DNA from: Chloroflexota bacterium
Lineage (GTDB): Bacteria; Chloroflexota; Limnocylindria; Limnocylindrales; CSP1-4
Reading direction: 5' to 3'
Length of the DNA stretch: 64,000 nucleotides
Assembly (NCBI GenBank): GCA_005883615.1
Contig: VBEC01000014.1
Coordinates: 48,497 to 112,496, forward strand
The translations under genes and the position numbers were made by a program. A model generated the notes under the pieces. The model worked only from the letters and a program-made list of their open reading frames with translations, searched no databases and was not told the origin of the DNA. Shown piece after piece: positions 28,753 through 52,005 of this stretch; the stretch's first letter is position 1; each line of letters starts with the position of its first letter.

Positions 28753-30678
28753 TCAGAGCGGCTCGAGGAGTAGAGGGCGGACGCGGCCCCACGCGTTCCA
28801 CAGGTCGATCAGCGCGTCCGCGCGACGTCCCAGGAGGGACAGGAGCTCTCCCAGGGTCAAGCCCTCCGCGGCGTCCACGAGGTATTCGAAGGCCGCCACA
28901 TTGACGTCCCTGAAGAGCTCCGGCATGTCGGTTTCCGAAGGCCAATGGCGAACGCGCATCGGGTCGAGGCCGGCATAACCCGTCGCCAGCGAGAGATCGC
29001 GCTGGGCCGGCACGCGATCGTCCACAAATTCGCCCAGCCCGTCGTAGCGGAATCCGAGCGACGCCAGTGCAGTCGTGATCTCGCGGCACTGCTCCCGCGT
29101 AAACGCACCCCAGAATGGATGGTCGGTCGGGAAGTCGAGCGACGATGCCTCGATGGCGCGGGCCACGATGCCGTCGACCAGGTCAGTCAAGGCCCTGCGC
29201 CAGCGGCGGATCTCATCTGGGTTGTCGCTTGAGAGCTCGTCGACGACAGCGCCCAGGACGACTCGATCCCCGGCGAGCAAGTGGGCGATCGCCGGCTGCC
29301 TCTCGCCGCGGGCGGCAGCCGCAAGGCCGTCCGATTCCTCGGCCGCTGCCGTTGACCCGTTGGTGCCTACGGCGAGGCCGGCTTCCCCCGGCCGTGAACC
29401 CGCGCTCGCTGGAACTGCCCCGGACGGGACGCTCGTGCGACGTTCGGCGGGTCCCCGCGATGGCTGGGGCGGCATGCGCGGAGCACGCTTTCGGTCCTGC
29501 TCGGCCTCTTCGCAGGCGGCCAGCGCCTCACGCGCGGCTACGCACGTCTCGGCGGCGGACTCGGCCCCAATCCGCGCTGCGTCCGCTTCGAGGGCCAGCC
29601 GCTCGAGCGTCGCGACCATCCCGTTTGCCGCGTCGCGTTCGACCTGGAATGCGCTGGTTGCCTCACGGGCGGAGAGATTGATGCGGTTGATTTCCAGGAG
29701 CCAATCGCGAGCCGCCGCCTCAACCCCCTCCTGTGAGCCGGCTCCGTCCCGAGCGGCACGAAATGCGTGCTGGGCGGCCTCCTTGGCCGTCCGCAGGGAT
29801 CGCGGGTCCATCGTCGCGGCCGCCCTGTCGGCGCGGGCCAGATGGTCGTCGAAATCTCGCTGGGCCTGCCGGACGCCTCTTGCCCCAGCTTCCGCCTGCT
29901 CGCGCAGCCGGGCCGCCAGCGCGCAGCGTTCGTCGACGGCACGTCGCCGGTCGGAGCACGGTCCGGCGCGGTCGCCGTTGCCCTGGTCGCCGGCCGCGCT
30001 GGCAAGCGTTTCTCCGCCGGACGAAGCGGCGCTCTCGGGGGCAGCGGCTCCGCGGGCGCCAAGTCCCCGCCCTCCCGCGCTCGTCTGCTGCTCGCGGCCA
30101 CCTCCGCGCATCGCCAGGGCGACCGGCACCACGGCCGCCGCCGCCCCGACTCGAGCGAGTGCCGCCAACAATGGATCTGTACCACCGGCGATGGGGAAGC
30201 CGATCAACGGTCCACCTTCCAACGCCAGCGTCGAGCGCACGACGGAAAAGGCGCGAGGCTGCAGGCCCGCAGGCCCCTCCCATGGGCCACCGTCAGCCTG
30301 GTGCCGGGGAACAGGCGTTCGAATCGAATCGTCGGGGGGCCGGCGGGATGTCGCGATGGCCAATCGGGATTGCGGTGTCGGCAGATCTGCGGGACCGCCA
30401 CGGGCGCCCTCGCCGTCGGCACGCTGCGGACCCGTGGACGCCAGGGTCGCCGACTGTCGCCGGGGAACGCTGTCGGGAGTCACCGTGAGGCGAATCTCCC
30501 GTGGCGTGGTCGGCCGGGCGCGAAGGATGACCAGCAGGGCCGCCCCAGCGGGAACGCCCAAGATGAGTCCGAACGCAAGGAACGCGAACTCGCTCCCGCT
30601 CAATCCCGGTCCTCCTGCCGGCTCCGCCGGATCGGCCTGGTCCGTCGGCAGCGTAGCTGCCAGCAGCTGCCAGGTCAA
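28753..30678 (-). CDS. Hypothetical large membrane-anchored coiled-coil protein
   Basis: TTG start. One N-terminal TM helix (FAFLAFGLILGVPAGAALLVIL), a long Ala/Arg/Glu coiled-coil-like middle and a conserved-looking C-terminal domain. The opposite strand carries only an Ala/Ser/Arg-rich frame, typical of antisense to a GC-rich gene. Confidence 0.5.
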   Translation of the reverse strand: MTWQLLAATLPTDQADPAEPAGGPGLSGSEFAFLAFGLILGVPAGAALLVILRARPTTPREIRLTVTPDSVPRRQSATLASTGPQRADGEGARGGPADLPTPQSRLAIATSRRPPDDSIRTPVPRHQADGGPWEGPAGLQPRAFSVVRSTLALEGGPLIGFPIAGGTDPLLAALARVGAAAAVVPVALAMRGGGREQQTSAGGRGLGARGAAAPESAASSGGETLASAAGDQGNGDRAGPCSDRRRAVDERCALAARLREQAEAGARGVRQAQRDFDDHLARADRAAATMDPRSLRTAKEAAQHAFRAARDGAGSQEGVEAAARDWLLEINRINLSAREATSAFQVERDAANGMVATLERLALEADAARIGAESAAETCVAAREALAACEEAEQDRKRAPRMPPQPSRGPAERRTSVPSGAVPASAGSRPGEAGLAVGTNGSTAAAEESDGLAAAARGERQPAIAHLLAGDRVVLGAVVDELSSDNPDEIRRWRRALTDLVDGIVARAIEASSLDFPTDHPFWGAFTREQCREITTALASLGFRYDGLGEFVDDRVPAQRDLSLATGYAGLDPMRVRHWPSETDMPELFRDVNVAAFEYLVDAAEGLTLGELLSLLGRRADALIDLWNAWGRVRPLLLEPL

Positions 30679-30766: not shown

Positions 30767-32686
30767 ATGGTAGATTCGACGTGTCGGCCGCGCCGATCCT
30801 CCCCAATTCCTGCCCGTCAGACGACCCCAGAGAGGCTCGACCCGCTCGTGGCGCTCGACCCCTACCAGGAATTCCTCGTCCAGCCCGTCGACGCGTCCTG
30901 GCTCCAGTGCAACATTGAGTGCCAGGAAGCCTGCCCGGTCGGCACCAATTGCCGGGGCTACCTCAACCTCGCCGCCGAGGGCCGCTTCGAGGAGGGCTAC
31001 ATCCTCTCGCGCGAGCCCAACCCCGTGGCGGCGATGTGCTCCTACGTCTGCTCGGCTCCGTGCGAGCGCGCCTGCCGGCGGGGTGACATCGACCGGCCCC
31101 TGGCCATCCGCGCGATGAAGCGCTTCCTCGTGGAATGGCACGAGGCGTCCGGAATCCCCGACGTGATGCCCCAGATCACCCCACGCGAGGAGCGTGTCGC
31201 CGTCGTCGGTGCAGGACCAGCCGGTCTGTCGGTCGCTCGCGAGCTGGCCATGAAGGGCATACGAGTCACGGTTTTCGACAGCCTGCCCTACGGCGGTGGC
31301 ACGATGCTGATCGGGGTGCCCGCGTTCCGTCTCCCGCGGGAGGCGATCGAGATGGACGTCCGCCTGATCGAGCGCCTCGGCGTGACTTTCGTCTACAACA
31401 CGACGATCGGCGTGGACATCACCTTCGATCAGCTCCAGCGCGACTTCGATGCGGTCGCGATCACGGCGGGCGCGATGAACCCGGTCATCCTCGACGTCCC
31501 CGGCCACGAGCTCGACGGGGTGCAGTACGGCGTCGACTTCATGAAGATCGCCAACCTCGGCGAGCAGCTCACCGTGGGCAACGACGTGGTCGTGATCGGC
31601 GGTGGCTACACGGCCATGGACTGCTCGCGCACGAGCCTCCGTCACGGTGCGGAAAACGTCGCGATCGTCTACCGGCGCACGCGCTCGGAACTCGTCGTCG
31701 ACGAAGAGGAGCTTGGCGAGACCGAGCGCGAGGGCGTTCGGATGGAGTTCCTGGCCAGCCCGGTCGAGGTGCTCGGGGAGGACGGTCACGTCACGGGCGT
31801 CAGGTTCATCCGCAACAAGCTGGGCGAGCCAGATGCATCGGGCCGCCGCTCACCGATCCCCATCCCCGGCTCGGAGTTCATGATCAAGGCCGACAGCGTG
31901 ATCCCCGCTGTGTCCCAGGCGGCGGATCTGACGTTCCTGCCCGTCGAGGCGAATTTCGAGATCGGCCGCGGTCGCGTGCGCGTCGACCCGGCGACCTACG
32001 CGAGCAACGTGCGGGGTGTGTTCGCATGCGGCGACTTCGTGACCGGTCCGACCACCCTCATCGAGGCTGCCGGCCATGGCAAGAAGTGCGCCTATGCAAT
32101 CGATCGCTACCTTGCCGCACAGGGCGACGTGACAGTGGACGCGAACGTCAAGATCACCAGCTCGTGGCGCCATGACATGCCCGAGATGTACGACGTCCTG
32201 CCTCGCCAGCACATCCCCATGGCCCCGCTCGCCGCGCGCATGGCCTCGACAGACCCCGAGGTGAACTTCACGACACCCGTCGAGCTCGGCTACGACGCCA
32301 CTCAGGCCGTCGCCGAGTCGACCCGCTGTCTCATGTGCAACTTCAACATCTGGTTCGACCCCTTCCGCTGCGTGTTGTGCGGCGCGTGCGCCGACGTCTG
32401 TCCCGAAGGCGTCATCCATATGGTCGACGTCAACCAGCTCAAGACCGAGGGCCTGCTGCCCGAAATCGAGGAGGCGTACGGCTGGGAAAACGGGGCGGCC
32501 ATGATCCTCGACGAGGAGCGCTGCATCCGCTGCGCGTTGTGCGTCAAGCGTTGCCCGTTCGACGCCATTACGATGGAGCGGTTCGAGCTGCAGGAGGTCT
32601 CGACTGACGGCCGGCTCTACAAGGAGTCGTACCGTGATGCGCAACTCGCCGGCACGCCCGGCGTGGCAGGAGGAGCCGTTCGGTGA
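30767..32686 (+). CDS. GltD-like FAD/NAD(P)H-dependent oxidoreductase fused to a C-terminal 2x[4Fe-4S] ferredoxin domain
   Basis: N-terminal Cys cluster (CNIECQEACPVGTNC ... CSYVCSAPCERAC). FAD GxGxxG VAVVGAGPAGL and NAD(P) GxGxxA VVVIGGGYTAMD. C-terminal CLMCN ... CVLCGACADVCP and CIRCALCVKRCP. Start uncertain (ATG 30767 or GTG 30848). Its stop overlaps the GTG start of cytochrome b6 (GTGA). Confidence 0.75.
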   Translation: MVDSTCRPRRSSPIPARQTTPERLDPLVALDPYQEFLVQPVDASWLQCNIECQEACPVGTNCRGYLNLAAEGRFEEGYILSREPNPVAAMCSYVCSAPCERACRRGDIDRPLAIRAMKRFLVEWHEASGIPDVMPQITPREERVAVVGAGPAGLSVARELAMKGIRVTVFDSLPYGGGTMLIGVPAFRLPREAIEMDVRLIERLGVTFVYNTTIGVDITFDQLQRDFDAVAITAGAMNPVILDVPGHELDGVQYGVDFMKIANLGEQLTVGNDVVVIGGGYTAMDCSRTSLRHGAENVAIVYRRTRSELVVDEEELGETEREGVRMEFLASPVEVLGEDGHVTGVRFIRNKLGEPDASGRRSPIPIPGSEFMIKADSVIPAVSQAADLTFLPVEANFEIGRGRVRVDPATYASNVRGVFACGDFVTGPTTLIEAAGHGKKCAYAIDRYLAAQGDVTVDANVKITSSWRHDMPEMYDVLPRQHIPMAPLAARMASTDPEVNFTTPVELGYDATQAVAESTRCLMCNFNIWFDPFRCVLCGACADVCPEGVIHMVDVNQLKTEGLLPEIEEAYGWENGAAMILDEERCIRCALCVKRCPFDAITMERFELQEVSTDGRLYKESYRDAQLAGTPGVAGGAVR

Positions 32687-33411
32687 GTTTCCTCGAGCGG
32701 GTGGACAACGCCATCCGCCGAAGCTCCGCTTGGCGCTCGCTGTTCCGTCAGCCGTACCCCTCGGACGAGCGTTCCCGGGCGTATGCGGTGATGAACAACG
32801 TCTTCCTGCATATCCATCCCGTCCGGGTGCGGCAGCACGCGGTGAAATTCGCCTACACCTTCTGCCTCGGCGGGCTGTCGTTCTTCCTGTTCCTGGTGCT
32901 GACGGTGACCGGCGTCTACCTGATGTTCTTCTACATCCCGTCGACGACCCAGGCGTACAGCAACATCCTGGACATCCAGGCACATCAGCCCTTCGGCCTG
33001 CTCACGCGAAACGTCCATCGTTGGGCCGCGCACCTGATGGTGTTCTTCGTCTTCCTGCACATGATGCGTGTCTTCTACCACGGTGCCTACAAGCCGCCAC
33101 GCGAGTTCAACTGGGTCGTTGGGATCATCCTTCTCTTCACGACCATCTTGCTGAGCTTCACGGGCTACCTGCTGCCGTGGGACCAGATCGCCTACTGGGC
33201 GATCACCATCGGCACGAACTTCGCCACCTACGTGCCTGTCTTCAACACCCCGACCCAGATCCTGTTGCTCGGTGGCCTGGAGGTTGGCCAGAACACGCTC
33301 CTGCGGTTCTACGTGCTCCACATCATGGTCCTGCCCCTGGTCGCGGCGATCTTCCTGGCGGTCCACTTCTGGCGAATTAGAAAGGACGGGGGCATTAGCG
33401 GACCGCTATGA
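32683..33411 (+). CDS. petB: Cytochrome b6 (b6f-type, N-terminal haem-binding half of cytochrome b)
   Basis: Four TM helices with conserved His pairs (HIHPV, HRWAAHLMVFFVFLHMMRV, HIMVLP). 242 aa, the typical split-b length. Confidence 0.9.
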   Translation: MSFLERVDNAIRRSSAWRSLFRQPYPSDERSRAYAVMNNVFLHIHPVRVRQHAVKFAYTFCLGGLSFFLFLVLTVTGVYLMFFYIPSTTQAYSNILDIQAHQPFGLLTRNVHRWAAHLMVFFVFLHMMRVFYHGAYKPPREFNWVVGIILLFTTILLSFTGYLLPWDQIAYWAITIGTNFATYVPVFNTPTQILLLGGLEVGQNTLLRFYVLHIMVLPLVAAIFLAVHFWRIRKDGGISGPL

Positions 33412-33545: not shown

Positions 33546-34148
33546 ATGACTGATACCAAGAAGCCGTCCGAGCGGCGCGTCGTGCTGCCCGTCGATCCGT
33601 CGCGGCGAACGGAGATCGACAAGCAGCGCGTGCCGATGTCGGCGCGGCCGTACCGGCTCCTGGCGCTGGTCAAGCAGGACGCCGTCGTCCGCGTCCAGAA
33701 AGAGCCGGACGACACCGTGATGACCTGGCCGCATCTCCTGTCGATCGAGTTTCTGGCCGCCGGCATGATGAGCATCTTCGTGCTGCTCTTGGGGCTGTTC
33801 GTCAACGCGCCCCTGGAAGCGCTGGCAAACGGCAACTTGACACCGGCGGTGGCCAAGGCACCGTGGTACTTCCTCGGCCTCCAGGAGCTCCTGGCGTACG
33901 TCCACCCAACCGTTGCGGGCGTTTTGACGCCCACGTTTGTATTCGTTGGCGGAATCCTGCTCCCCTACGTCGACCGCGAAAATATCGATGAGCATCGGCC
34001 GTCGAATCGCAAGACTGCGGTCATGCTCTTCACCCTGCTGCTCGGCATGGGCCTGGTCGTCACGTTCGTTGGCATCTTCTTCCGGGGCGCGGGGTACACC
34101 TTCGTGCTCCCGTACATCGACTCACCCGGCCTCCATTTCAACCTCTGA
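33546..34148 (+). CDS. petD: Cytochrome b6f complex subunit IV (cytochrome b C-terminal half)
   Basis: PEWY-like region (APWYFLGLQELLAYVHP) and 3 TM helices. Confidence 0.85.
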   Translation: MTDTKKPSERRVVLPVDPSRRTEIDKQRVPMSARPYRLLALVKQDAVVRVQKEPDDTVMTWPHLLSIEFLAAGMMSIFVLLLGLFVNAPLEALANGNLTPAVAKAPWYFLGLQELLAYVHPTVAGVLTPTFVFVGGILLPYVDRENIDEHRPSNRKTAVMLFTLLLGMGLVVTFVGIFFRGAGYTFVLPYIDSPGLHFNL

Positions 34149-34181: not shown

Positions 34182-34856
34182 ATGAGCAACTATCAAGTCG
34201 AGCCGGTCGACCAACCGAAGGCCCTGACGCGCGAAGCCATCAAGGCACTGCGCAACGAGCAGGTCCAGGGCCTGTCAAGACGTCAGATGCTGCGCCGGTC
34301 AGTGGGCGGCGCGGTCCTCCTGTGGCTCGGGGAGGTCAGCCTTGGTACGGTCGGCTTCCTGTGGCCGAACCTGAGCGGTGGATTCGGAGCGAAGGTCAAG
34401 ATCGGCACCTACAACGACATCAAGCTGGCCAACAGCAACCTGCCTATCAATGAGGGATTTCCGGCCTACTACCCGGAGGCGCGGGCATTCGTCATCCTGA
34501 TCGACCCCGCCCGCCAGGAGTTCATCCCCGGGACCGACACGACCGGCGACGGCCACCCGCTCAACGTGCGCGGCCTGTACCAGCGTTGCCCGCACCTGGG
34601 TTGCCGGCCGAACCCGTGCCTCAAGAACTTCTGGTTCGAGTGCCCCTGCCACGGGTCCCGCTACGACCGGCTCGGCATCAAGGCAGATGGTGCGCGCTTT
34701 GGCCCGGCGCCCCGGAGCATGGACCGATTCTCAGCCACGGTCGACAGCGGGGGCGTGCTGACGCTCGACACCGGCAAGATCACGAAGGGGCCACTGCCGG
34801 TCGCGCTCGGTCAGCCAGGATTGATCCCGCCCAAGTCTCCGACCGGGTGCATTTAG
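34182..34856 (+). CDS. petC: Rieske [2Fe-2S] iron-sulfur subunit
   Basis: Tat signal (SRRQMLRR) and Rieske boxes CPHLGC ... CPCHGS. Confidence 0.9.
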   Translation: MSNYQVEPVDQPKALTREAIKALRNEQVQGLSRRQMLRRSVGGAVLLWLGEVSLGTVGFLWPNLSGGFGAKVKIGTYNDIKLANSNLPINEGFPAYYPEARAFVILIDPARQEFIPGTDTTGDGHPLNVRGLYQRCPHLGCRPNPCLKNFWFECPCHGSRYDRLGIKADGARFGPAPRSMDRFSATVDSGGVLTLDTGKITKGPLPVALGQPGLIPPKSPTGCI

Positions 34857-34890: not shown

Positions 34891-35961
34891 ATGACCGACG
34901 AGTCCGGAGGCGGACCGGAGCAGCGTCTGCCCGTGCCCCGGCCGGAAGCGGTCCCGGCGCCGGCAGAGCGTTTCAGCGCGCCACCCTCGGCTCACGCATT
35001 CGAGCTGACACCGGAGCGGGCGGCGGGCATCGTCCGCCAGTCGGCCAGCGCTCGATCGGTCGGGCTCCTCGCCGTGCTCGTCGTGTCGCTCTTCGTGGCT
35101 ATTTACTACTTCTACGACCTCGGCGTTCCCGGCATCTCCGGCACCGCGCGTCTGGCCGCCGAGGCCAGCGCCCAGCAGGTGACAGCGGTCGAGAATGGCC
35201 ACAACATCTTCGAGGCCAACTGCGCGCGCTGCCACGGAGCCAATGGCGAAGGCGGGATCGGCCCGGTCCTCCACGATCAGACCAAGCTCTTCCAGCACCT
35301 GAACGCGACCTACATCGCGGCCGTCCTGCGCGAGGGGGGCCGGCTCGTGTGTGGCAATGCCAAGAGCCTGATGCCGGTCTGGTCGAATGAAGGCAACCCA
35401 CCGGGGCCACTCAACTACATCGAGATCCAGGACCTGATCGCATTCATTCGAGCCCCGCAGACGCAGACCTTCCTGGTTCGGGACCCGACCACCAATGAAC
35501 CCGTCAAGGACGCCACCGGCAAGGACGAAACCTTCAACGGCTGGCTGGATCCGAACTACAAGCCGGCCGCGGATGCCACCCCGTTCCCGGACTGCTGGCA
35601 GGATGCCTTCAAGAGCAGCAGTTCACCGTCCGCTTCGGGATCTCCGTCAGCCTCGGCCACGGCTGCAGCGTCGTCCGGGGGGACCACCCTCAAGGAGACC
35701 GCCCAAGGCGTGGCTTTCCAGCAGACAGAGCTGACCGCGCCGGCCGGCCAGGGCTTCGTGATCCAGTTCACCAACAACGATGCCGGGACGTCGCACAACA
35801 TCGAGATCAAGAGCCCCGATGGGTCGGACGCGTTCAAGGGCGAGATCTTCGCGGGCCCCGGCGAGCGGACCTACAACGTGCCGCCCCTCGCGGCCGGGAC
35901 ATACCCGTTCATGTGCACCGTGCATCCGACCACGATGACCGGCACCCTCACGGTCAAGTGA
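34891..35961 (+). CDS. Membrane-anchored monoheme cytochrome c fused to a C-terminal type-1 copper cupredoxin domain
   Basis: N-terminal TM, CxxCH (CARCHGANGEGG), Ala/Ser linker, then cupredoxin ligands H (SHNIEI), C and H (FMCTVHP) and M (TTMTG). Confidence 0.8.
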   Translation: MTDESGGGPEQRLPVPRPEAVPAPAERFSAPPSAHAFELTPERAAGIVRQSASARSVGLLAVLVVSLFVAIYYFYDLGVPGISGTARLAAEASAQQVTAVENGHNIFEANCARCHGANGEGGIGPVLHDQTKLFQHLNATYIAAVLREGGRLVCGNAKSLMPVWSNEGNPPGPLNYIEIQDLIAFIRAPQTQTFLVRDPTTNEPVKDATGKDETFNGWLDPNYKPAADATPFPDCWQDAFKSSSSPSASGSPSASATAAASSGGTTLKETAQGVAFQQTELTAPAGQGFVIQFTNNDAGTSHNIEIKSPDGSDAFKGEIFAGPGERTYNVPPLAAGTYPFMCTVHPTTMTGTLTVK

Positions 35962-36007
35962 GCACACGTCCGGCGCGCGGACGCGTTTGGCGACAGGTGG
36001 GAGGACG

Positions 36008-37477
36008 ATGACGGAGGCGCTCGGTCCGGGACACAGGCAGCGGGGTCGACCGGTCTTCGGCCTGCTCGACGCCGACGGCTGGGGCTGGGCATTCCTCAAA
36101 GCCTTCTTCTGGTTCATCGTGATCCTGTTCCTTCTGGGCTATCTACCCGACCGCGCGTACTACTTCACGGTCAATCCCACCATCGACCTCGGGATCAACG
36201 CCGTTTCGCCGGTGAACTTCTGCCCGCCCGAGAACGCTGGCCTCCCCTGTCCCGCCCCGCCCGGAGGGGTCCTGCCGTGGCAGTCCTCCCCGGCCCAGCT
36301 GAAGCTGCCCGAGGCACGCCGCGACGGAGCGGCGGTGCAGGTCGGCACCAACCTGCTGTACATCGGCGGCAGCGACGGCAAGGCCCCCAGCGCGAAGGTC
36401 TACGTGACGGACCTGTTCGGCGACGGCAACTATGCGCCGTGGCGCGCGGGGCCGGACCTGCCCGAACCGCGCACCAAGGCCGCCGCCGTCTTCTTCAGCG
36501 GCTCGATCTTCGTCGCCGGCGGCGACGACGCGTCGGGCAAGCCGACCACCACCATGTGGATCCTGACGCCAGACGCCCAGACCGGCAGCCTCGGAACCTG
36601 GAAGCCCGCCGCCGACACGACCGGCAAGAACGACCCGAAACTCGACCTGAAGCTGCTGGAGGCCCGCGACGGAGCCTCGCTGGCGGCGGCGGCGGACGGA
36701 TTGTTCCTGGTCGGCGGTCGTAACGCCTCGGGCCCCGTCAATACGGTCTGGAAGTCGACCATCGACACGAAAGGTGTCCTCCACGCCTGGCAGCCAACCA
36801 CCGCGGGAACCATGCCCGGCACTCGCGCGGACGGCCTGGCCTTCCTTAACGGGAACTTCCTGTACGTGTACGGCGGCGTGGACGGCGGCTCTCCCACCAC
36901 CGCGGTCTGGGTTGCCCAGGTCGGCAAGGACAAGGACGGCGCGAGCCAGCTGACCGCGTGGGCCAGCAACATCCAGTCCTTGCCGGCGGCGCGCACGAAC
37001 GCCTCGGGTTTCGTGGCCAACCAGGCTATCTACCTGGTCGGCGGCTCGGACGGCAGCAAGGCACATACCGAGCTCTACTGGGCGATCCCGAGCAGCAACG
37101 GGGCGATCACGGAGTGGAAGCATCTATCGAACTCCGATCTGCCCGCCGGCGGTCTCCTCGGGTCGGCGGCCGCGGTCAGCGGCAGTCACGCCTTCCTGAT
37201 CGGGGGCCAGTCGGGGAACGGCCTGACCGGCTCGACGCTGCGCACGAACCTGGCACCAAAGCCGCCCTTCTTCCAGCTCGGCCTCGTGGGTGCGACGGTG
37301 CCCGGGCTCAAGATCGAGGGCGACATCGGGCCGCAGCTGGGGCTCCTCGCGGCCGCCGGCGTGGGCACGGGCAACTTCGTCATCCTGCTGCTGATCGCCT
37401 ACCTGTTCGCACACAAGGCACAGGTTCGGGCGTGGTTCTACCGAATGCGAGAGCGTCGCCGCGCGCGAGAAACCTGA
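36008..37477 (+). CDS. Kelch-repeat (beta-propeller) membrane protein
   Basis: GGAGG RBS before the ATG at 36008. N-terminal TM, 5-6 Kelch-like repeats (LYIGGSDG, IFVAGGDD, LFLVGGRN, LYVYGGVDG, IYLVGGSDG, AFLIGGQSG) and a C-terminal TM. Located 47 nt after the cyt c-cupredoxin gene. Confidence 0.7.
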   Translation: MTEALGPGHRQRGRPVFGLLDADGWGWAFLKAFFWFIVILFLLGYLPDRAYYFTVNPTIDLGINAVSPVNFCPPENAGLPCPAPPGGVLPWQSSPAQLKLPEARRDGAAVQVGTNLLYIGGSDGKAPSAKVYVTDLFGDGNYAPWRAGPDLPEPRTKAAAVFFSGSIFVAGGDDASGKPTTTMWILTPDAQTGSLGTWKPAADTTGKNDPKLDLKLLEARDGASLAAAADGLFLVGGRNASGPVNTVWKSTIDTKGVLHAWQPTTAGTMPGTRADGLAFLNGNFLYVYGGVDGGSPTTAVWVAQVGKDKDGASQLTAWASNIQSLPAARTNASGFVANQAIYLVGGSDGSKAHTELYWAIPSSNGAITEWKHLSNSDLPAGGLLGSAAAVSGSHAFLIGGQSGNGLTGSTLRTNLAPKPPFFQLGLVGATVPGLKIEGDIGPQLGLLAAAGVGTGNFVILLLIAYLFAHKAQVRAWFYRMRERRRARET

Positions 37478-37480
37478 CGG

Positions 37481-37858
37481 TTAGCGGGCGGGGAGCTTGC
37501 CCTCGTCCGGAGCCGGTTGCCCATGCCGAACGGGCAGGCCCGCCTTCTGCCAGGCGATGATGCCGCCGACGACATTGACGGCGTCGTAGCCGCTTCGCAC
37601 AAGGTGCCCGGTCGCGGCCAGGGAGCGACTGCCCGCCGCGCACATGACGAGCAACGGCCGGTCCCGTGGCAGCTCGGCGAAGCGTTCCGCGAATTCGGAC
37701 ATCGGCAGCAGGACCGCGTCAGGCACACGCACGTCTTCGAATTCGTCACGCTCGCGCACGTCGAGGAGTAGCGGCCCCCGGCCTTGCGTGCCGGCGGCGC
37801 GACGGGCATCGGCTTCGATGACGCCGATGGACGGTAGCGGCGCGGCTGCCGGGTTCAT
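37481..37858 (-). CDS. Rhodanese-domain sulfurtransferase
   Basis: LLLDVRERDEF ... CAAGSRS active-site Cys loop. ATGA overlap with the upstream DUF309 gene. Confidence 0.8.
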   Translation of the reverse strand: MNPAAAPLPSIGVIEADARRAAGTQGRGPLLLDVRERDEFEDVRVPDAVLLPMSEFAERFAELPRDRPLLVMCAAGSRSLAATGHLVRSGYDAVNVVGGIIAWQKAGLPVRHGQPAPDEGKLPAR

Positions 37859-38253
37859 ATCGTGGGCGGCCCGAGGCGGACACTCGCGCTTCCGGCCTCC
37901 AGTTGGGCCAGGCGTTCATCGATCGCCCGGACGATGGCCGACAAGTCGAGGGTCTCGGCACCCTGGCCTGGCGCGCGGCGGCGGGTCGGGGTCCCGGGCC
38001 GGGAGGAGTCGGCGGCCGCAGATAACCGCCGGCGAGCTCCGAGGAGGTTCTTGGCGATGCCCAGGGGGTTGCCTCGGACCTCGTGGACGTACGCCGCGGC
38101 CAGCTTGATCAGACCCTGGTAGAGGTCGCGCTCGGCCGGGTCATCGGTACCCATCCAGGCAGGCTCCAGCAGCTCGTGTGCCTCGAAGAAGTCTCCTCGC
38201 CGGTACGCCGCGAGCCCGGCTGCGAAGGCACGGCGTCGCGCCGCTGCCGGCAT
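37855..38253 (-). CDS. DUF309 domain protein
   Basis: FFEAHELLEPAW ... LYQGLIKLAAAYVH signature of DUF309. Start placed at the internal ATG 38251-38253; the long N-extension in the track was rejected. Confidence 0.7.
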   Translation of the reverse strand: MPAAARRRAFAAGLAAYRRGDFFEAHELLEPAWMGTDDPAERDLYQGLIKLAAAYVHEVRGNPLGIAKNLLGARRRLSAAADSSRPGTPTRRRAPGQGAETLDLSAIVRAIDERLAQLEAGSASVRLGPPTI

Positions 38254-38327
38254 CGGCCGATAGGCCTTGGCACGGCCGTCCTGGAGAACCGTCCGGCGCG
38301 CACCACGAGTCGCGGCGACGTCCGAGG

Positions 38328-38828
38328 TCACGCCAGCTCGCTCAGCGGACGGCGCCCCGGGAAGCCATCGGTCAGCTCGTGCCACCAGTCCACGCTCTCC
38401 TCGCCGAGGCGCCAGCACAGGCAGACCTGGCGGCCCGTGACCAACGCGGGAAAGTCGACCAGGCCGGTCTTGATGTCGCGCAGGGTGATCGAAAGCTCCT
38501 CGAGGCGAGCAACCGACGCCTGCATCTGGTCGATGATGCCCTGCATCCGCAGCCGCAGGCGGGTCTCGTCGGCGACCGCCACGTCCGACCGCCCGAGGGG
38601 TTCGCCGTCGGCAGTCTTTCCTGGATCGCCGCCACTCCCGCGACTCGCCTCCGAGCCGAGGCGCTCGCCCTCCGGGCTGCTCGGCCCGAGGGCCTGCTCG
38701 GATTGGAGCTCGAGAAGCCGATCCCGGAGCCGGATCAGCTCGAGGCGATGGCCCGCCAGCTGGGTCGCGATCTCGCGGACCTCGGGCAGCGCCGCATTGG
38801 CGGCATCGATGTCGTAAAAGCGGGTCAC
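38328..38828 (-). CDS. Hypothetical protein (DUF2203-like)
   Basis: N-terminal FYDIDAANAALPEV and C-terminal IKTGLVDFPA ... CWRLGE ... WWHE pattern. Protein-like composition. Confidence 0.5.
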   Translation of the reverse strand: MTRFYDIDAANAALPEVREIATQLAGHRLELIRLRDRLLELQSEQALGPSSPEGERLGSEASRGSGGDPGKTADGEPLGRSDVAVADETRLRLRMQGIIDQMQASVARLEELSITLRDIKTGLVDFPALVTGRQVCLCWRLGEESVDWWHELTDGFPGRRPLSELA

Positions 38829-38898
38829 CCACCGATTCTACGCGCGCGTCGCGCAGCTGCGGTCAACCGAGATCAGGGCGCGATGACCGGCTGCTAGG

Positions 38899-45617: not shown

Positions 45618-46585
45618 GCGTCTGCCTCCCCGCGCGGCGCGCCGGGCTCGCCTTCTGCGCCCGCAACGAGCTCCAGGTAGCGCTCCTCCAGCGACCCGCG
45701 GCCCGTCGTCAGCTCCGCAATGAGAAGTCCGCGCTCCGCACTCCAGCGCGCAAGCCTGGCGAGCACGTCCGGCTCCGCCGTGACTCCGTCGAGCCGGTAG
45801 CGGCCTCCTCCCTCATCGGTCAGACTGCCTGGTGCGCCATCGAGCAGTGTGCCGCTCAGTTCCTCTCGGTCGGCGACCTCGAGGGGATGAGGCAATCGGA
45901 AACGCAGCCGGGGGGATGCCGAGGAGGCGAGCTCGTCAGGGGATCCAGCGGCGACCAGCCGGCCGTGGTCGATCAGGGCGACGTGGTCGGCCAATCGTTC
46001 GACATCGGCGAGGTCGTGTGTCGTCAACAGGATCGCGACGCCGGTCCCGCGCAGCTCGGCGATGAGGGTCCGGGTCGCGGCACGGCCTTCGGGATCCATG
46101 CCCGCGGTCGGCTCGTCCAGGATCAGGACCTCTGGATCGCCCACCAAGGCGACCGCCAGAGCCAGCCGCTGCTTCTCGCCCCCCGAAAGGCGGCGGTAAG
46201 GCGTTCGAGCGCTGGTCCGCAACCCAACGAGATCGATCAGCTTCTGCGGGCCTCGCCCGCCGGCGTGGAAGTTCGCATACAGCCGCAGGATTTCATCGGG
46301 CCGTGCCTGTGGATAGATGCCGCCGCCGCCCTGGAGCATCAGGCCGACCCGGGCCTTCAGGTTCCGGCCGCCTGTCCCTGGGTCCGTGCCCAGCACGCGG
46401 ACCGAGCCTCCATCGGCGGTTCGGTAACCCTCCACGATCTCGACCGTGGTCGTCTTTCCGGCGCCATTCGGACCCAGGAGCGTGAACACCTCGCCGCGCG
46501 ACACGCTGAAGGTCAGGCCATCGACCACCGGTCGAGCTCCGTATCGCTTGGTGAGGTCGTCGACGACGATTGCCGGGTCGGTCAC
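45614..46585 (-). CDS. ABC transporter ATP-binding protein (DrrA/ABC-2 exporter type)
   Basis: Walker A GPNGAGKTT, LSGGEKQRLALAVAL, Walker B ILDEPTAGMD. Confidence 0.9.
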   Translation of the reverse strand: MTDPAIVVDDLTKRYGARPVVDGLTFSVSRGEVFTLLGPNGAGKTTTVEIVEGYRTADGGSVRVLGTDPGTGGRNLKARVGLMLQGGGGIYPQARPDEILRLYANFHAGGRGPQKLIDLVGLRTSARTPYRRLSGGEKQRLALAVALVGDPEVLILDEPTAGMDPEGRAATRTLIAELRGTGVAILLTTHDLADVERLADHVALIDHGRLVAAGSPDELASSASPRLRFRLPHPLEVADREELSGTLLDGAPGSLTDEGGGRYRLDGVTAEPDVLARLARWSAERGLLIAELTTGRGSLEERYLELVAGAEGEPGAPRGEADA

Positions 46586-47049
46586 CGCAGGATGGCGGCG
46601 AGCTGGCGGTCGAGATCGGCCGCGGTCAGCTCGCCGATCTGGCGCGATAGGATGACGCCCTTCCGATCGATGAAGTAGGACTGCGGCGGCGCGACGGCCT
46701 GATACGTTGCCTTGGCCGAACCGTCCGGATCCGGAAGGCTGGGCCAGCTGGCGCTGTGGTTCATCATGAAGTCACGGGCCGGTCCCGGGCTGTCGTTCCA
46801 GAGGACGCCCACGATCTCGAGGCCCTCGGCCTGGTGGTCGGCGTTGTACCGCTCGAGGAGCAACGGGAACTCCCGGGTGCACGGCACGCACCATGAGGCC
46901 CAGAAGTTCACCAGGACTGGGTGCCCTCGCAGGCTCGAAAGGCTCACCGCCCTGCCATCGATCGCAGTGCCGGCCAGCTCAGGGGCCAGCTGGCCGACCG
47001 TAGCAACCGGCTTGCTCGTGGCGCAGCCCCCGACGGCAGACAGGAGCAA
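46582..47049 (-). CDS. TlpA/ResA-family thiol-disulfide oxidoreductase (redoxin)
   Basis: WASWCVPC thioredoxin motif. Annotated TTG start. The in-frame upstream sequence encodes a lipoprotein-like signal (RLLAAALLLSAVGGC) with no canonical start codon, so the true start is uncertain. Confidence 0.75.
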   Translation of the reverse strand: MLLSAVGGCATSKPVATVGQLAPELAGTAIDGRAVSLSSLRGHPVLVNFWASWCVPCTREFPLLLERYNADHQAEGLEIVGVLWNDSPGPARDFMMNHSASWPSLPDPDGSAKATYQAVAPPQSYFIDRKGVILSRQIGELTAADLDRQLAAILR

Positions 47050-47110
47050 GGCGGCCGCGAGCAGGCGCGGAATGGGGAGTCGTGCGAGGCGGGGGACAGG
47101 CGTTGTGGAC

Positions 47111-48202
47111 CTACTTGATCGTCAGTGTCCCCGTCATCGTCGGGTGGACGGAGCAGGTGAAGGGATACGCGCCCGCGGCGAGCGCGGGGACGTTGTAGAC
47201 GGTCGAAATGGGGCCGGTCACGATCTCGCCCTTGAACACATCCTTGCCGGAAGCGTCCTTGATGTCCACGTTGTGCATGGTGGCCTGGTCTTTGTTCTGG
47301 AAGGCGATCGTGAACGGCTTGCCGGCGGGACCGGCCACATCGGGCGTGGTGAACTGGGTTGCTTCGGCAACGATCGAGACATCGCCCTTTGGCGCCGGGG
47401 CGTTCGACGGAGCCGAACCCCCCGATCCACTACCCGGGCCGGCCGCAGCGCCGGGAGCCGGCGAGCCGGCCGCGGCGGTCGTGGAGGTCTTGGGCGGCAG
47501 CACCCCCGACTGGATGACGACTGCGGCGCCTACAAGGATCACGAAGAGCGCGAGCGTGCCCATCGGGAAGGCCGGCGCCGGCGGTGGCGGCTGATGCCCC
47601 CTCCGATCGGCCTCCTCTACCAGCCGATATTCGTGCCGCGCGTCGCGCAGCCAGCCGAGCAGCGAGATGGCGAGCGTGACGATCCCGACGAGCAGCAGCG
47701 CCGGCCCGAACACAAGCCCGAAGAAGATGATCGCCAGGGCGATCGAAGCAAGGATCGGCTGGAATGATGGCACCGGGGCGTGGACACCCGGTGGCGGCTC
47801 CTCGCGCACGACCACGAGCGCGGTGTCCCGCCCCAGGAGGTGGTCGTGCTCGCGCATCGCCTCGCGGCCCCAGTACAGCAACGCCAGGGCCATCCCGATC
47901 GCGGCCAGGGGAATGGCCATGCCACCCGCCACCAGAGCGAACAGGACGAGGAAGGTCGCGATCGCACCAAAGAACGGAGCAAACGACGGCACCGGTGGGT
48001 GAACGCCGGGCGGCGGGGCCGGCGTAAGGCGGGTGCGGCCGCGTCGCCGCGGACCTACGCGAGTGAACGACCAGCCCAGCCACAGTATGTAAAGGACGAC
48101 CAGGCCCAGGATGGCCAAGGGCAGCAGTGCGATCAGCGAGCCCCAGTCGGGGGTGATGATCTGCGAGAGGATGTTGAGGATCTGGTCCCAGACGGCCTGC
48201 AT
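47111..48202 (-). CDS. Polytopic membrane protein with internal tandem duplication and C-terminal type-1 copper cupredoxin domain
   Basis: Two repeats of a 2-TM unit containing PPGVH(P/A)PVPSF. Ala/Pro/Gly linker. Cupredoxin ligands H (TMHNVDI), C and H (FTCSVHP) and M (TMTG). Its C-terminus is paralogous to the tails at 35961 and 50672. Confidence 0.7.
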   Translation of the reverse strand: MQAVWDQILNILSQIITPDWGSLIALLPLAILGLVVLYILWLGWSFTRVGPRRRGRTRLTPAPPPGVHPPVPSFAPFFGAIATFLVLFALVAGGMAIPLAAIGMALALLYWGREAMREHDHLLGRDTALVVVREEPPPGVHAPVPSFQPILASIALAIIFFGLVFGPALLLVGIVTLAISLLGWLRDARHEYRLVEEADRRGHQPPPPAPAFPMGTLALFVILVGAAVVIQSGVLPPKTSTTAAAGSPAPGAAAGPGSGSGGSAPSNAPAPKGDVSIVAEATQFTTPDVAGPAGKPFTIAFQNKDQATMHNVDIKDASGKDVFKGEIVTGPISTVYNVPALAAGAYPFTCSVHPTMTGTLTIK

Positions 48203-48214
48203 CGGGCGGCTCGG

Positions 48215-48409
48215 TCAGTCCCGGGGCGAGCCGGAGATCAGGACGTAGGCCATCAGACCCATCGCGATGCCCAGCGCACCGAGCATCGTCACCCCGGCGT
48301 AGTCAAGCTGCCACTTGCCGAAGTAGGGGACGGCCCAATAGATCACGCCGATGACGACGAAGATCACTCCCACGAGGAAGGCGTTCCGAGGATGGCGCAG
48401 CGGATGCAT
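48215..48409 (-). CDS. Putative small cytochrome c oxidase subunit IV-like membrane protein
   Basis: 64 aa with two TM helices, directly downstream of ctaE. Start at the internal ATG (MHPLRHP) chosen to avoid overlapping ctaE. Confidence 0.35.
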   Translation of the reverse strand: MHPLRHPRNAFLVGVIFVVIGVIYWAVPYFGKWQLDYAGVTMLGALGIAMGLMAYVLISGSPRD

Positions 48410-48420
48410 GACGCCGCCCG

Positions 48421-49044
48421 CTACAGGATGTAGAGGGTCGAGAAGAGGGCAACCCACACCACGTCGACGAAGTGCCAGTACAGGGAGGTTGCTTCGACGG
48501 CATCGTGGTGGCGGGCGGTGAACTGCCCGGCCAGCGCCCGGTAGAGGATCACGCTGAGCATGATCGTGCCGCCCAGGACGTGGGCGCCGTGGAAGCCGGT
48601 CAGCGTGAAGAACGTGGTCCCGAAGGTGCCGTCGGTCAGCCCGAAGCCGAGCTGGCTGTAGTCATACGCCTGGCCGAGCAGGAAGGCGATCCCCAGCACG
48701 AGCGTGACCGCAATGCCGCGCACTAGTCCGCGCCGGTCGTCGCGGCGGATGGCCCAGATGCCGAGCTGGCACGTGAACGAGCTGGTGACAAGGATGACCG
48801 TGAGGATGGCGGCCTTCCAGGGGTCTTCATGGAGGTTGAAGTGCGGGTTGTCCGCCGGCGGCCACGGGCGCGTCGACGCGCGGACCGTGAAGTAGGCGCC
48901 AAAGAGCCCGGCGAAGAACATGACCTCGCTGGTGATGAACAGCAGCATCCCGAGGACGGGGTTGCTGATTCCACCGCGCTGGTCGTGCGCCAGCCCGGCG
49001 ACGAGGCTGTGCTCGGTGGTGAGTGCGTGAGAGTCGGCTGTCAC
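48421..49044 (-). CDS. ctaE: Cytochrome c oxidase subunit III
   Basis: Five TM helices with conserved GFHGAHV and YWHFVDVVW motifs. Confidence 0.9.
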   Translation of the reverse strand: MTADSHALTTEHSLVAGLAHDQRGGISNPVLGMLLFITSEVMFFAGLFGAYFTVRASTRPWPPADNPHFNLHEDPWKAAILTVILVTSSFTCQLGIWAIRRDDRRGLVRGIAVTLVLGIAFLLGQAYDYSQLGFGLTDGTFGTTFFTLTGFHGAHVLGGTIMLSVILYRALAGQFTARHHDAVEATSLYWHFVDVVWVALFSTLYIL

Positions 49045-50663
49045 GCGTGGTTACCGGCACGACCGTGACGCAAGTCGAACAGCGGACGCTCGGAGCGGAT
49101 CTCAGGAAGATGGTCGAAGTTGTAGGGCGGCGGCGGGGAGCTCGTGGCCCATTCGAGGGTGTTGGCCTCCCACGGATCGTCGCCCGCCGGCTCGCCGTTG
49201 CGGAGCGAGATCATCACGTTCCACAGGAACGGCAGCATGCTCGTGGCAATCGTGAAGCCGCCGATCGTCGCCAGCAGGTTCAGCTCGCTCCAGCCGGCGG
49301 CTGCGCTGTAGTCGGCCACCCGCCGGGGCATGCCCATCAGTCCCAGCATGTGCATCGGGAAGAAGGTCAGGTTGAAGCCCACGAACATGAGCACGAAATG
49401 GATCTTGCCCAGGGTTTCGTCGAGCAGCCGGCCGGTCATCTTGGGGAACCAGTAGTACAGGCCGGCGAACATTCCGAACACCGACCCGCCGAAGAGCACG
49501 TAGTGGAGATGGGCGACCACCCAGTACGTGTCATGCAGGGCGAAATCCACGGGAACGGCCGCGCTGAAGGCGCCGTTGATGCCCCCGATCAGGAACATGG
49601 TCAGGAAGCCCAACGCGAACAGCATCGGCGTGCTGAAGATCAGCTGGCCTCGGAACAGCGTCGCGACCCAGTTGAACATCTTGACGCCCGTCGGCACCGC
49701 GATGAGGAACGTCATCAGTGAGAAGAACGGCAGGAACACCGAACCCGTCGTGAACATGTGGTGGGCCCACACGGAGAAGCCCAGGGCACCGATGCCCGCG
49801 GTGGCGAACACGAACGCCTTGTACCCGAACAGTGGCTTGCGCGAGAACACGGGCAGGATCTCGCTGACCATACCCATCGCGGGCAGGACCATGACGTACA
49901 CCGCGGGGTGCGAGTAGAACCAGAACACGTTCTGCCAGAGGATGGCGTTGCCGCCGGTGGCCGGATCGAAGAAGTGGCCGCCGTAGTTGCGGTCGATGAA
50001 CAGCATGATCAAGGCGCTGGTGAACACGGGCGTGGCCATCAGCACGAGCACACTCGTGACGAGGACTGTCCAGACGAGGATCGGCAGCCGGAACATGGTC
50101 AGTCCCGGAGCGCGCATCTTGAAGATGGTGGTCAGGAAGTTGACCGCCCCCAGGATGGAACTCGTCCCGATGAGGATCAGGCCCACTGCCCAGAGGTCGG
50201 TGCCCGTGCCGGAATAGGCGCGTTGGGCCAGCGGGCTGTAGCCCGTCCAGCCCTCGGCCGCCGCGCCGCCCGTGAAGAAGCCGGTGAACATCAGGATGCC
50301 GCCCAACGGCAGCATCCAGAAGGACAGCGCATTGATGCGCGGGAAGGCCATGTCCGGGGCGCCGATCTGGAGGGGGACGACGTAGTTTGCGAAGCCGGCC
50401 AGGATGGGGATGATGAACAGGAAGATCATCACAGTCCCGTGCATCGTGAACAGCTGGTTGTAGACGTCCGGGGCGAAGAACTGGATCTTCGGCTGAGCGA
50501 GTTCGGCGCGCACGCCGAGCGCCAGGAGCCCCGCCAGGAAGAAGAACAGCAACGAGTTGACGACGTACAGGATGCCGATCTTCTTGTGGTCGGTCGTCGT
50601 GATCCACTCGTACAGCCCGCTCCGGTAGGCGGGGACGGCGGGGTGTAGCGCAGTCGTCGCCAT
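49041..50663 (-). CDS. ctaD: Cytochrome c oxidase subunit I (haem-copper oxidase, aa3 type)
   Basis: TTDHKKIG, the full set of haem a / CuB His ligands (WAHHMF, HHMFT etc.) and a GGAG RBS 8 nt before the ATG at 50663. The track ORF N-extension to 50720 was rejected. Confidence 0.95.
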   Translation of the reverse strand: MATTALHPAVPAYRSGLYEWITTTDHKKIGILYVVNSLLFFFLAGLLALGVRAELAQPKIQFFAPDVYNQLFTMHGTVMIFLFIIPILAGFANYVVPLQIGAPDMAFPRINALSFWMLPLGGILMFTGFFTGGAAAEGWTGYSPLAQRAYSGTGTDLWAVGLILIGTSSILGAVNFLTTIFKMRAPGLTMFRLPILVWTVLVTSVLVLMATPVFTSALIMLFIDRNYGGHFFDPATGGNAILWQNVFWFYSHPAVYVMVLPAMGMVSEILPVFSRKPLFGYKAFVFATAGIGALGFSVWAHHMFTTGSVFLPFFSLMTFLIAVPTGVKMFNWVATLFRGQLIFSTPMLFALGFLTMFLIGGINGAFSAAVPVDFALHDTYWVVAHLHYVLFGGSVFGMFAGLYYWFPKMTGRLLDETLGKIHFVLMFVGFNLTFFPMHMLGLMGMPRRVADYSAAAGWSELNLLATIGGFTIATSMLPFLWNVMISLRNGEPAGDDPWEANTLEWATSSPPPPYNFDHLPEIRSERPLFDLRHGRAGNHA

Positions 50664-50671
50664 GCTGCTCC

Positions 50672-51820: not shown

Positions 51821-52005
51821 CGGCAAGGGTGTCTCCGAAGTCGATCGGTCAGCGGTCGCGGTCAGCGCCCGGGACGAGACGCGACCGGCGGAGTCGGCAA
51901 CGTGGCCCGACCTCGGCCGGACCGCTCCAATCATACCCGCAGACTTCGGGCATGTGTCGGGTGCCGGCCGGCCGCCCGAGGGTGCCGATCGTCATTCGGG
52001 GCACA

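Follow-up and report, generated by a model that had tools for sequence, protein, structure and literature searches.

The Kelch gene is the last gene of a Rieske/cytochrome b operon

We analyzed a Kelch-repeat gene that lies at the end of a respiratory operon in a 64,000-nucleotide (nt) stretch of Chloroflexota DNA from the class Limnocylindria (contig VBEC01000014.1), which we refer to here as the window. All coordinates are window positions, and all Kelch residue numbers refer to the 489-amino-acid (aa) protein encoded there. The gene occupies positions 36008-37477 on the + strand, from an ATG at 36008 to a stop codon ending at 37477. Homologue alignments favor this ATG over the TTG at 35987 with which the longest open reading frame (ORF) opens, and a Shine-Dalgarno sequence, GGTGGGAGG, sits ahead of it as the ribosome-binding site. 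The GC contents of the three codon positions (0.64/0.55/0.88) agree with those of the other genes of the window (68% GC), and the product can be aligned from end to end with over 1,900 proteins in the databases, which are 476-513 aa long. The ORF is thereby confirmed as a genuine gene.

The Kelch gene is the sixth and last of six co-oriented genes. The first encodes a GltD-like FAD/NAD(P)-binding flavoprotein with [4Fe-4S] domains (30848..32686, +; 612 aa; probable start GTG 30848). We regard a 1,203-aa ORF opening at 29075 as an over-extended version of this frame, since the Pfam domains Fer4_20, Pyr_redox_2 and Fer4 match only its residues 610-1170 and the flavoproteins of relatives are 609-616 aa long. 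The flavoprotein gene is ∼90% conserved class-wide and overlaps the start of the cytochrome b gene by 4 nt; an NAD(P)-linked module on a Rieske/cytochrome b complex of aerobic heterotrophs is an oddity in itself. The cytochrome b6-type subunit (32683..33411, +; 242 aa; Pfam Cytochrome_B, 155 bits) is ∼87% identical among relatives and barely reaches the NCBIfam ExtP equivalog cutoff (291.2 versus 290). It is followed by subunit IV, the PetD-like C-terminal half of cytochrome b (33546..34148, +; 200 aa; Pfam Cytochrom_B_C, 28.7 bits), whose ExtQ-like match of 52.5 bits stays under the cutoff, and by the Rieske [2Fe-2S] subunit (34182..34856, +), in which SRRQMLRR forms a twin-arginine signal and CPHLGC and CPCHGS are the cluster motifs. 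The fifth gene (34891..35961, +) encodes a membrane-anchored fusion of a monoheme cytochrome c (CARCH; Pfam Cytochrom_C) with a cupredoxin (Pfam Cupredoxin_1); an Ala/Ser-rich linker joins the two halves, and the type-1-copper ligand residues H..C-x2-H-x3-M are present. With a divergent gene upstream and a convergent rhodanese gene that ends 3 nt downstream of the Kelch gene, these six genes form one unit.

An earlier reading of the window, made from the sequence only, had placed the Kelch gene 47 nt after the cytochrome c-cupredoxin gene on the same strand. The strand is correct, but the spacer, which carries the Shine-Dalgarno sequence, measures 46 nt (35962..36007, +), the upstream gene ending at 35961. 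A site scan detected neither a promoter-like nor a terminator-like site in this spacer, and no promoter-like site in the scanned operon region. An intrinsic terminator in the spacer was rejected as well: there is no U tract, and the sequence folds no better than its shuffled versions (z 0.46; z -0.25).

Linkage to the operon is retained throughout Limnocylindria

Scanning one genome per GTDB species, we found the Kelch gene in at least 305 species, a number that is a lower bound because the scan motifs miss the Limnocylindrus clade. Among the best 80 of these 305, all are metagenome-assembled genomes of Limnocylindria/Chloroflexota except two short contigs filed under other phyla, which are probably mis-binned. 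The cytochrome c-cupredoxin gene stood directly upstream of the Kelch gene in every Kelch-anchored genome locus with upstream DNA (83/83), and the order flavoprotein-cytochrome b-subunit IV-Rieske-cytochrome c/cupredoxin-Kelch was retained in all of them; downstream, the rhodanese, DUF309 and aminotransferase genes lay at varying distances or were absent. The reverse test gave the same picture, with a Kelch gene following the cytochrome c-cupredoxin gene in 45/45 Rieske-anchored metagenome contigs that extended far enough downstream. The synteny on which the sequence-only reading had made its case depend therefore holds in both sets of loci. On one contig (L002, 8854-9958; shared with L020), the cytochrome c (123 aa) and the cupredoxin (213 aa) were called as separate genes, with the Kelch gene still following them.

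The spacing is tight. The gap between the cytochrome c-cupredoxin and Kelch genes has a median of 43 nt, closes to a 4-nt stop/start overlap in 9 loci and is at most 16 nt in ∼20 more, and the Shine-Dalgarno sequence ahead of the Kelch gene is conserved among loci. Such an arrangement suggests that the two genes are co-translated.

To reach more distant relatives, we searched 1.84 billion cluster representatives with a profile and inspected the top 150 matches. Six were genuine full-length Kelch proteins of this type, with 41-52% identity to the window protein; the list was otherwise filled with fragments, frameshifted assemblies and giant multi-Kelch proteins, whose summed scores saturate it. 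Ten of the lower-scoring representatives (P0137, P0141, P0143, P0149, P0162, P0196, P0200, P0201, P0212 and P0237) were frameshifted or mis-assembled, with Arg/Pro-rich nonsense stretches, and P0149 resembles a read-through from the cupredoxin C terminus into the Kelch protein. These are assembly artifacts, not divergent relatives.

Gene context could be looked up for five of the six divergent representatives. In four, namely the freshwater "Candidatus Limnocylindrus" clade (through the relative P0274; L085) and the clades of P0129, P0124 and P0126 (L087, L091 and L092), the gene directly upstream of the Kelch gene was that for cytochrome c-cupredoxin or one of matching size truncated by the contig end. 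In the fifth, the contig ends just upstream of the Kelch gene in a 52-aa copper-binding C terminus (Pfam Copper-bind). The same operon order was thus found in divergent clades at 41-46% identity (L085, L087-L089, L091 and L092). L085 and L087 have wholly different flanking genes and nevertheless retain the Kelch linkage; the cytochrome c subunit of L087 keeps the copper ligand residues even though Pfam misses the domain. As would be expected of a Rieske/cytochrome b subunit, the Kelch gene is encoded in the operon not only in both sets of loci but also in every divergent clade with recovered upstream DNA. Since the linkage to the bc operon outlives general synteny, we take it to mark genes that function as a unit.

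The Kelch protein is a membrane-anchored six-bladed propeller

The Kelch protein belongs to the Kelch-repeat beta-propeller superfamily, both by family score and by blade structure. Pfam models PF24681 (86.1 bits versus a gathering cutoff of 50) and PF01344 (57.8 versus 20.1) match it, PF13415, PF13418 and PF13964 are likewise above cutoff, and no curated family in the Pfam and NCBIfam scans covers the protein as a whole. An AlphaFold2 model built from 121 sequences reached a pLDDT (predicted local distance difference test) of 89.3 and a pTM (predicted template modeling score) of 0.79, with propeller blades above a pLDDT of 90. It has six blades, each with one GG doublet (residues 120/121, 171/172, 236/237, 289/290, 345/346 and 399/400), and LPxPR recurs as the start of blades. 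From the N terminus, the model runs through a long helix (25-55), a short beta hairpin, the propeller (∼100-415), a second beta hairpin (422-432, with strands 422-424 and 427-432), a helix (440-468) and a terminal helix (470-488). Only two segments of the protein are hydrophobic. Pfam, the model and these two segments agree in bearing out the sequence-only reading of a six-bladed Kelch-like propeller between N- and C-terminal transmembrane (TM) helices.

Averaged over the family, the N-terminal tail carries a net charge of +1.7 and the C-terminal tail one of +5.9, and the loop after TM helix 1 carries -2.4. With basic tails and an acidic loop, the positive-inside rule predicts both ends of the protein to be cytoplasmic and the propeller to stand on the outer, positive (P) face of the membrane, and the AlphaFold2 model likewise supports an outside propeller. 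The protein can accordingly be divided into a basic, predicted cytoplasmic N-terminal tail with the conserved motif FGLLDxDGW (aa 1-24; 36008..36079, +); TM helix 1 with conserved W25, W27, K31, A32, W35, Y45 and P47 (aa 25-47; 36080..36148, +); an outer juxtamembrane segment with the PDRAYYFTV motif, a beta hairpin and a Cys72/Cys81 loop, CPPENxxLPCPAP (aa 48-99; 36149..36304, +); the propeller, predicted on the P side (aa 100-415; 36305..37252, +); a C-terminal stalk, APKPPFFQLGLVGATVPGLKIEG, predicted to form a beta hairpin (aa 416-437; 37253..37318, +); TM helix 2 with the small-residue motif G438, G441, Q443, G445 and A449 (aa 438-468; 37319..37411, +); and an Arg-rich cytoplasmic helix (aa 469-489; with the stop codon, 37412..37477, +). 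Each of the 121 proteins has exactly two Cys residues, both in the outside loop, and a disulfide between the invariant Cys72 and Cys81 is plausible.

Conservation peaks outside the propeller

We scored conservation as the fraction of sequences with the commonest residue, averaged per region. The best-kept region of the protein is the juxtamembrane PDRAYYFTV segment (aa 48-63; 0.89), followed by the C-terminal stalk, APxPPFFQLGLxGATVPxLxIxGE (0.85), TM helix 2 (0.80) and TM helix 1 (0.77). The propeller, at 0.62, falls below both anchors and the stalk. Hallmark motifs of the anchors were present in all six divergent representatives of 50%-identity clusters. This distribution is unusual, being the inverse of what a passive membrane anchor would show. 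Within the propeller, almost all conserved residues are those that any Kelch fold has, namely the GG doublets, W, the Tyr of YxGG and the blade-opening LPxPR. One further residue, H469, is invariant in the soil clade, but since it is replaced by Gln in the freshwater Limnocylindrus clade it is not an essential ligand, and we rejected it as a heme or metal ligand.

The propeller lacks the hallmarks of an enzyme

Kelch propellers include enzymes, and the sequence-only reading had offered as one possibility a copper-radical oxidoreductase that uses the cupredoxin. An enzyme of this sort, whether an oxidase of the galactose oxidase/GlxA type exchanging electrons with the cupredoxin or a NanM-type mutarotase, would fit the weak matches (∼34 bits) to the Pfam models Kelch_3 and Kelch_4, which are named for the galactose oxidase central domain. 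It would also fit the label N-acetylneuraminic acid mutarotase that the Joint Genome Institute (JGI) gives to some relatives, others being labeled hypothetical, Kelch repeat or mutarotase-like in their sources. The protein itself makes such a role very improbable. The propeller has six blades, not the seven of galactose oxidase, and contains no Cys in 121/121 sequences, so that a Tyr-Cys cofactor is impossible. It averages 1.9 His residues, of which H372 is the only conserved one, and the conserved Tyr118 and Tyr342 belong to the structural YxGG motif. When we looked for the metal site that a radical oxidase would need, no conserved set of His/Tyr ligands was found across the 121 sequences, and the copper-radical proposal was dropped.

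The best matches among solved structures, by Foldseek and by sequence against the PDB, were KLHL12, NS1-BP, LZTR1, KLHL3 and Keap1 (Foldseek E values of ∼1e-17 to 1e-18, target TM scores of 0.75-0.84, ∼20% identity), all of which bind proteins; designed Kelch proteins also matched the model, and there was no enzyme among the top structural matches. A NanM/YjhT mutarotase was rejected on family scores far under the NCBIfam cutoffs (TIGR03547, 28.6 versus 256.35; NF010730, 30.5 versus 416; TIGR03548, 44.8 versus 243.2) and under that of Pfam NANM (29 versus 45). A NosZ-type CuZ site, which takes seven hub His residues, was rejected on the His content given above. The Ycf48/HCF136 family was absent among the Pfam matches at E ≤ 0.01, and the six Kelch blades do not agree with its seven. 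Finally, an anti-sigma, sensor or signaling role was rejected because the cytoplasmic tails are only ∼24 and 21 aa long and carry no domain.

Links between the Kelch protein and electron transfer

In one relative, P0271 (630 aa; L086, 1277-3169), an insert of ∼125 aa separates the Cys loop of the Kelch protein from blade 1. This insert is a cupredoxin of the sulfocyanin (SoxE) type (PF06525, 26.2 versus 21) and holds the type-1-copper ligand residues His...Cys-x4-His-x4-Met. P0389, which is also 630 aa long and shares the 90% cluster of P0271, comes from another source, so that the variant is represented by two independent assemblies, from a Limnocylindrus-related clade. The possibility that the insert is a copy of the cupredoxin of the neighboring gene was ruled out (E 0.17). 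By its position in the sequence, the insertion would put a redox carrier on the Kelch scaffold, at a membrane-proximal height on the P side.

Correlated divergence was assessed by mirror-tree and partial Mantel analysis of 15-25 loci (25 loci plus the window, or 26 sequences, for the Kelch distances). The Kelch distance matrix correlated best with that of the cytochrome c-cupredoxin protein (r 0.79, or 0.75 once two flanking housekeeping genes are controlled for), then with that of the Rieske protein (r 0.72), followed by the flanking aminotransferase (r 0.63) and 2-hydroxyacid dehydrogenase (r 0.36). Because fast-evolving proteins yield less noisy distances, we consider this weak support for a link between the Kelch and cytochrome c-cupredoxin proteins.

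An aa3-type oxidase cluster lies ∼10 kb downstream of the Kelch gene, at 46582-53121. It comprises an AhpC-like gene (46582-47121), a gene for a 363-aa protein (47111-48202, -) with a cupredoxin 54% identical to that on the bc cytochrome c, COX3 (48421-49044), COX1 (49041-50720), COX2, encoding subunit II with an extra C-terminal Cupredoxin_1 domain (50672-51934, -), and CtaG (51829-53121, +). Counting the one on the bc cytochrome c, there are three such paralogous, tethered copper domains, which points to a relay that needs no carrier between complexes III and IV and would profit from a fixed scaffold. In this respect the window speaks for the terminal oxidase as a possible docking partner of the propeller.

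A proposed docking role in the Rieske/cytochrome b complex

We prefer, tentatively and at somewhat less than an even chance, to read the Kelch protein as an accessory or docking subunit that is specific to this lineage and stands on the P side of the Rieske/cytochrome b (b6c-type) complex of Limnocylindria. Its gene would be co-transcribed as the last of the six-gene operon. By the predicted topology, the two-helix hairpin and the small beta stalk carry the propeller on the P face, the side of the Rieske head and of the membrane-tethered cytochrome c-blue-copper domain. The highly conserved hairpin and stalk would pack on the equally conserved membrane core, be it cytochrome b, subunit IV or the TM helices of the Rieske or cytochrome c protein. 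The faster-evolving propeller would then serve as a protein-binding platform without a cofactor of its own that positions or docks the tethered domains with heme c and copper, or else subunit II of the aa3 oxidase with its own cupredoxin, so that electrons could leave the bc complex without a soluble carrier. We favor this reading because the operon position is invariant, the spacing is tight and the gap in the window lacks promoter- or terminator-like sites; because the anchors outconserve the propeller, which is predicted on the P side and has the fold of protein-binding Kelch domains; and because a cupredoxin-inserted variant exists and Kelch distances track those of the cytochrome c-cupredoxin protein best and those of the Rieske protein next. 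The sequence-only reading had named an accessory, assembly or scaffolding role first among its possibilities, and invariant, tight and often overlapping synteny together with anchor conservation supports that choice.

Alternatively, the gene might be co-transcribed with the operon and yet encode a functionally independent surface protein, such as a binder of an envelope glycan or of an unrelated protein. The annotation of relatives as only hypothetical, Kelch repeat or mutarotase-like, the sub-threshold similarity to NanM-type sugar mutarotases and the variable propeller surface would all suit such a passenger. We nevertheless judge it improbable, as 128/128 loci are linked despite complete turnover of the flanks among clades at 41-46% identity, stop and start codons overlap in 9 loci, the anchors are conserved, and the cupredoxin insertion ties the Kelch protein to redox chemistry.

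The spacers of relatives bear on another alternative. In 48 relatives with spacers of 30-170 nt, these fold better than dinucleotide shuffles (mean z -1.79; 48% below -1.64), forming a GC-rich hairpin without a U tract (e.g., in L013, L040, L052 and L079, among L003-L083). The stem persists between loci even though the sequences differ; the window's own spacer is not significantly structured, and about one-third of loci have no spacer. This hairpin is not a canonical terminator but could be a processing, stability or attenuation element that lowers Kelch expression relative to the core genes. With the caveat of this U-less hairpin in about half of the relatives, we found neither an independent promoter or terminator nor a loss of synteny, the two findings that the sequence-only reading had named as speaking against it.

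A recurrent hairpin could provide sub-stoichiometric expression, as would suit an assembly or maturation factor for P-side parts that is absent from the mature complex. Such a factor would hold on to a nascent subunit for a short time, for instance while copper is loaded into the cupredoxin, while heme c is attached or while the Rieske protein docks after its twin-arginine export, much like the lumenal propeller Ycf48 in the assembly of photosystem II. The end of an operon is a common place for assembly genes, a protein-binding propeller would stand on the correct side of the membrane, and the same invariant synteny applies. We still consider this unlikely, though less so than a passenger. The extreme conservation of the TM helices and the stalk suggests a permanent, specific membrane contact, and the redox-competent cupredoxin insert of one lineage points to electron transfer itself. 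Moreover, the CtaG encoded in the window is dedicated to the oxidase, and we know of no requirement of type 1 copper sites for dedicated copper-loading factors of this kind.

Several points weigh against the accessory or docking subunit that we prefer. To our knowledge, no bc or b6f complex has a propeller subunit, which gives a subunit a low prior. The association of the Kelch protein with the bc complex is a genomic or structural deduction throughout, and the operon survey covers bc operons of Limnocylindria only. As the conserved propeller residues are almost all generic fold positions, a binding surface could not be picked out. The mirror-tree signal, drawn from 26 sequences only, is confounded by the level of divergence. 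Finally, a hairpin that could lower Kelch expression in about half of the relatives fits an assembly factor better than a stoichiometric subunit.

A bolder form of the docking reading makes the Kelch protein a stoichiometric sixth subunit of an undescribed flavoprotein-Rieske/cytochrome b complex and the docking hub that wires tethered heme c and blue-copper domains (those of the complex itself, of COX2 and of the third paralogue) to the cupredoxin-bearing aa3 oxidase. We regard this as doubtful, if somewhat more probable than an assembly factor. If true, it would be the first beta-propeller subunit of any bc/b6f-type complex, with a carrier-free III-IV supercomplex around it. Whatever weight remains beyond the four readings, that is, accessory or docking subunit, assembly factor, passenger and enzyme, we assign to roles outside those considered.

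Genes surrounding the operon

Upstream of the operon, a divergent 641-aa ORF (28753-30678, -) without a Pfam match is probably its real upstream neighbor; unannotated genes for proteins of 502-576 aa occupy the same place in L002, L003 and L087. Downstream, a rhodanese gene and then a DUF309 gene (37481-38832, -) converge on the Kelch gene. This pair, often together with DUF2203, recurs downstream of the Kelch gene in most soil-clade loci at variable distance and is absent or rearranged in L085 and L087. Elsewhere in the window, 19468-22434 (-) encodes a 988-aa protein with a MerR-type helix-turn-helix, four GAF domains and a GGDEF diguanylate cyclase domain.

Significance and comparison with known systems

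Rieske/cytochrome b complexes are among the most studied energy converters, and lineage-specific extra subunits often explain how they are stabilized or wired to partners. If our preferred reading is true, a 489-aa operon-locked propeller would be a new type of accessory in an abundant, essentially uncultured class of soil and freshwater bacteria. It would add to two further oddities of this complex, an NAD(P)-type iron-sulfur flavoprotein as the first gene product and a cytochrome c-blue-copper fusion with paralogues on the terminal oxidase. Should the Kelch protein organize these tethered domains, it would show how this lineage passes electrons between complexes III and IV in the absence of a soluble carrier. 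Thousands of proteins that now bear the label hypothetical or N-acetylneuraminic acid mutarotase could also be placed in a better functional context.

In fold and blade number, the window protein agrees with the eukaryotic BTB-Kelch/KLHDC adaptors (KLHL12, KLHL3, NS1-BP, Keap1 and LZTR1), which bind proteins or peptides without a cofactor. In contrast to these adaptors, it has no BTB/BACK domain or ubiquitin context and is bacterial and, by prediction, extracytoplasmic, with TM helices at both ends and a conserved stalk. Periplasmic NanM/YjhT, the source of the automatic name of relatives, is likewise a bacterial extracytoplasmic Kelch propeller, but it is soluble, whereas the window protein is membrane-anchored and has no sialic-acid genes nearby. 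A Kelch-type propeller is also shared with galactose oxidase and with Streptomyces GlxA, the latter membrane-anchored outside the cytoplasm; their seven blades, Tyr-Cys cross-link and His2Tyr2 copper site have no counterpart in the window protein.

Other propellers are comparable by location or by partner. Ycf48/HCF136 is a lumenal, P-side propeller that acts through protein binding as an assembly factor of photosystem II. It differs in having seven BNR-type blades and in being a lipoprotein or soluble, without a TM hairpin, and no sequence similarity to the window protein was detected. NosZ, and methylamine dehydrogenase with amicyanin, combine a beta-propeller with a cupredoxin of the blue or purple copper kind; in the P0271 variant, a single chain contains the two. 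In NosZ, seven His residues of the propeller bind CuZ, and methylamine dehydrogenase carries tryptophan tryptophylquinone, whereas the Kelch propeller has no conserved ligands.

Full-text searches found no literature in which a Kelch protein or propeller is connected with bc or b6f complexes or with the respiration of Limnocylindria. We thus found no described precedent for a bc-type operon with a propeller accessory gene, whose product most likely represents an accessory partner not described before. Among bc complexes, the supernumerary subunits that we know of are small, mostly single helices or lipoproteins, and none is a ∼490-aa propeller. They include subunit IV of Rhodobacter sphaeroides (PMC10041115). 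Like those associated with the actinobacterial bcc-aa3 supercomplexes, such subunits are lineage-specific, membrane-anchored and non-catalytic, are encoded with or associated with the core, and are thought to stabilize or connect complexes. In its proposed role, the Kelch protein of Limnocylindria resembles these subunits.

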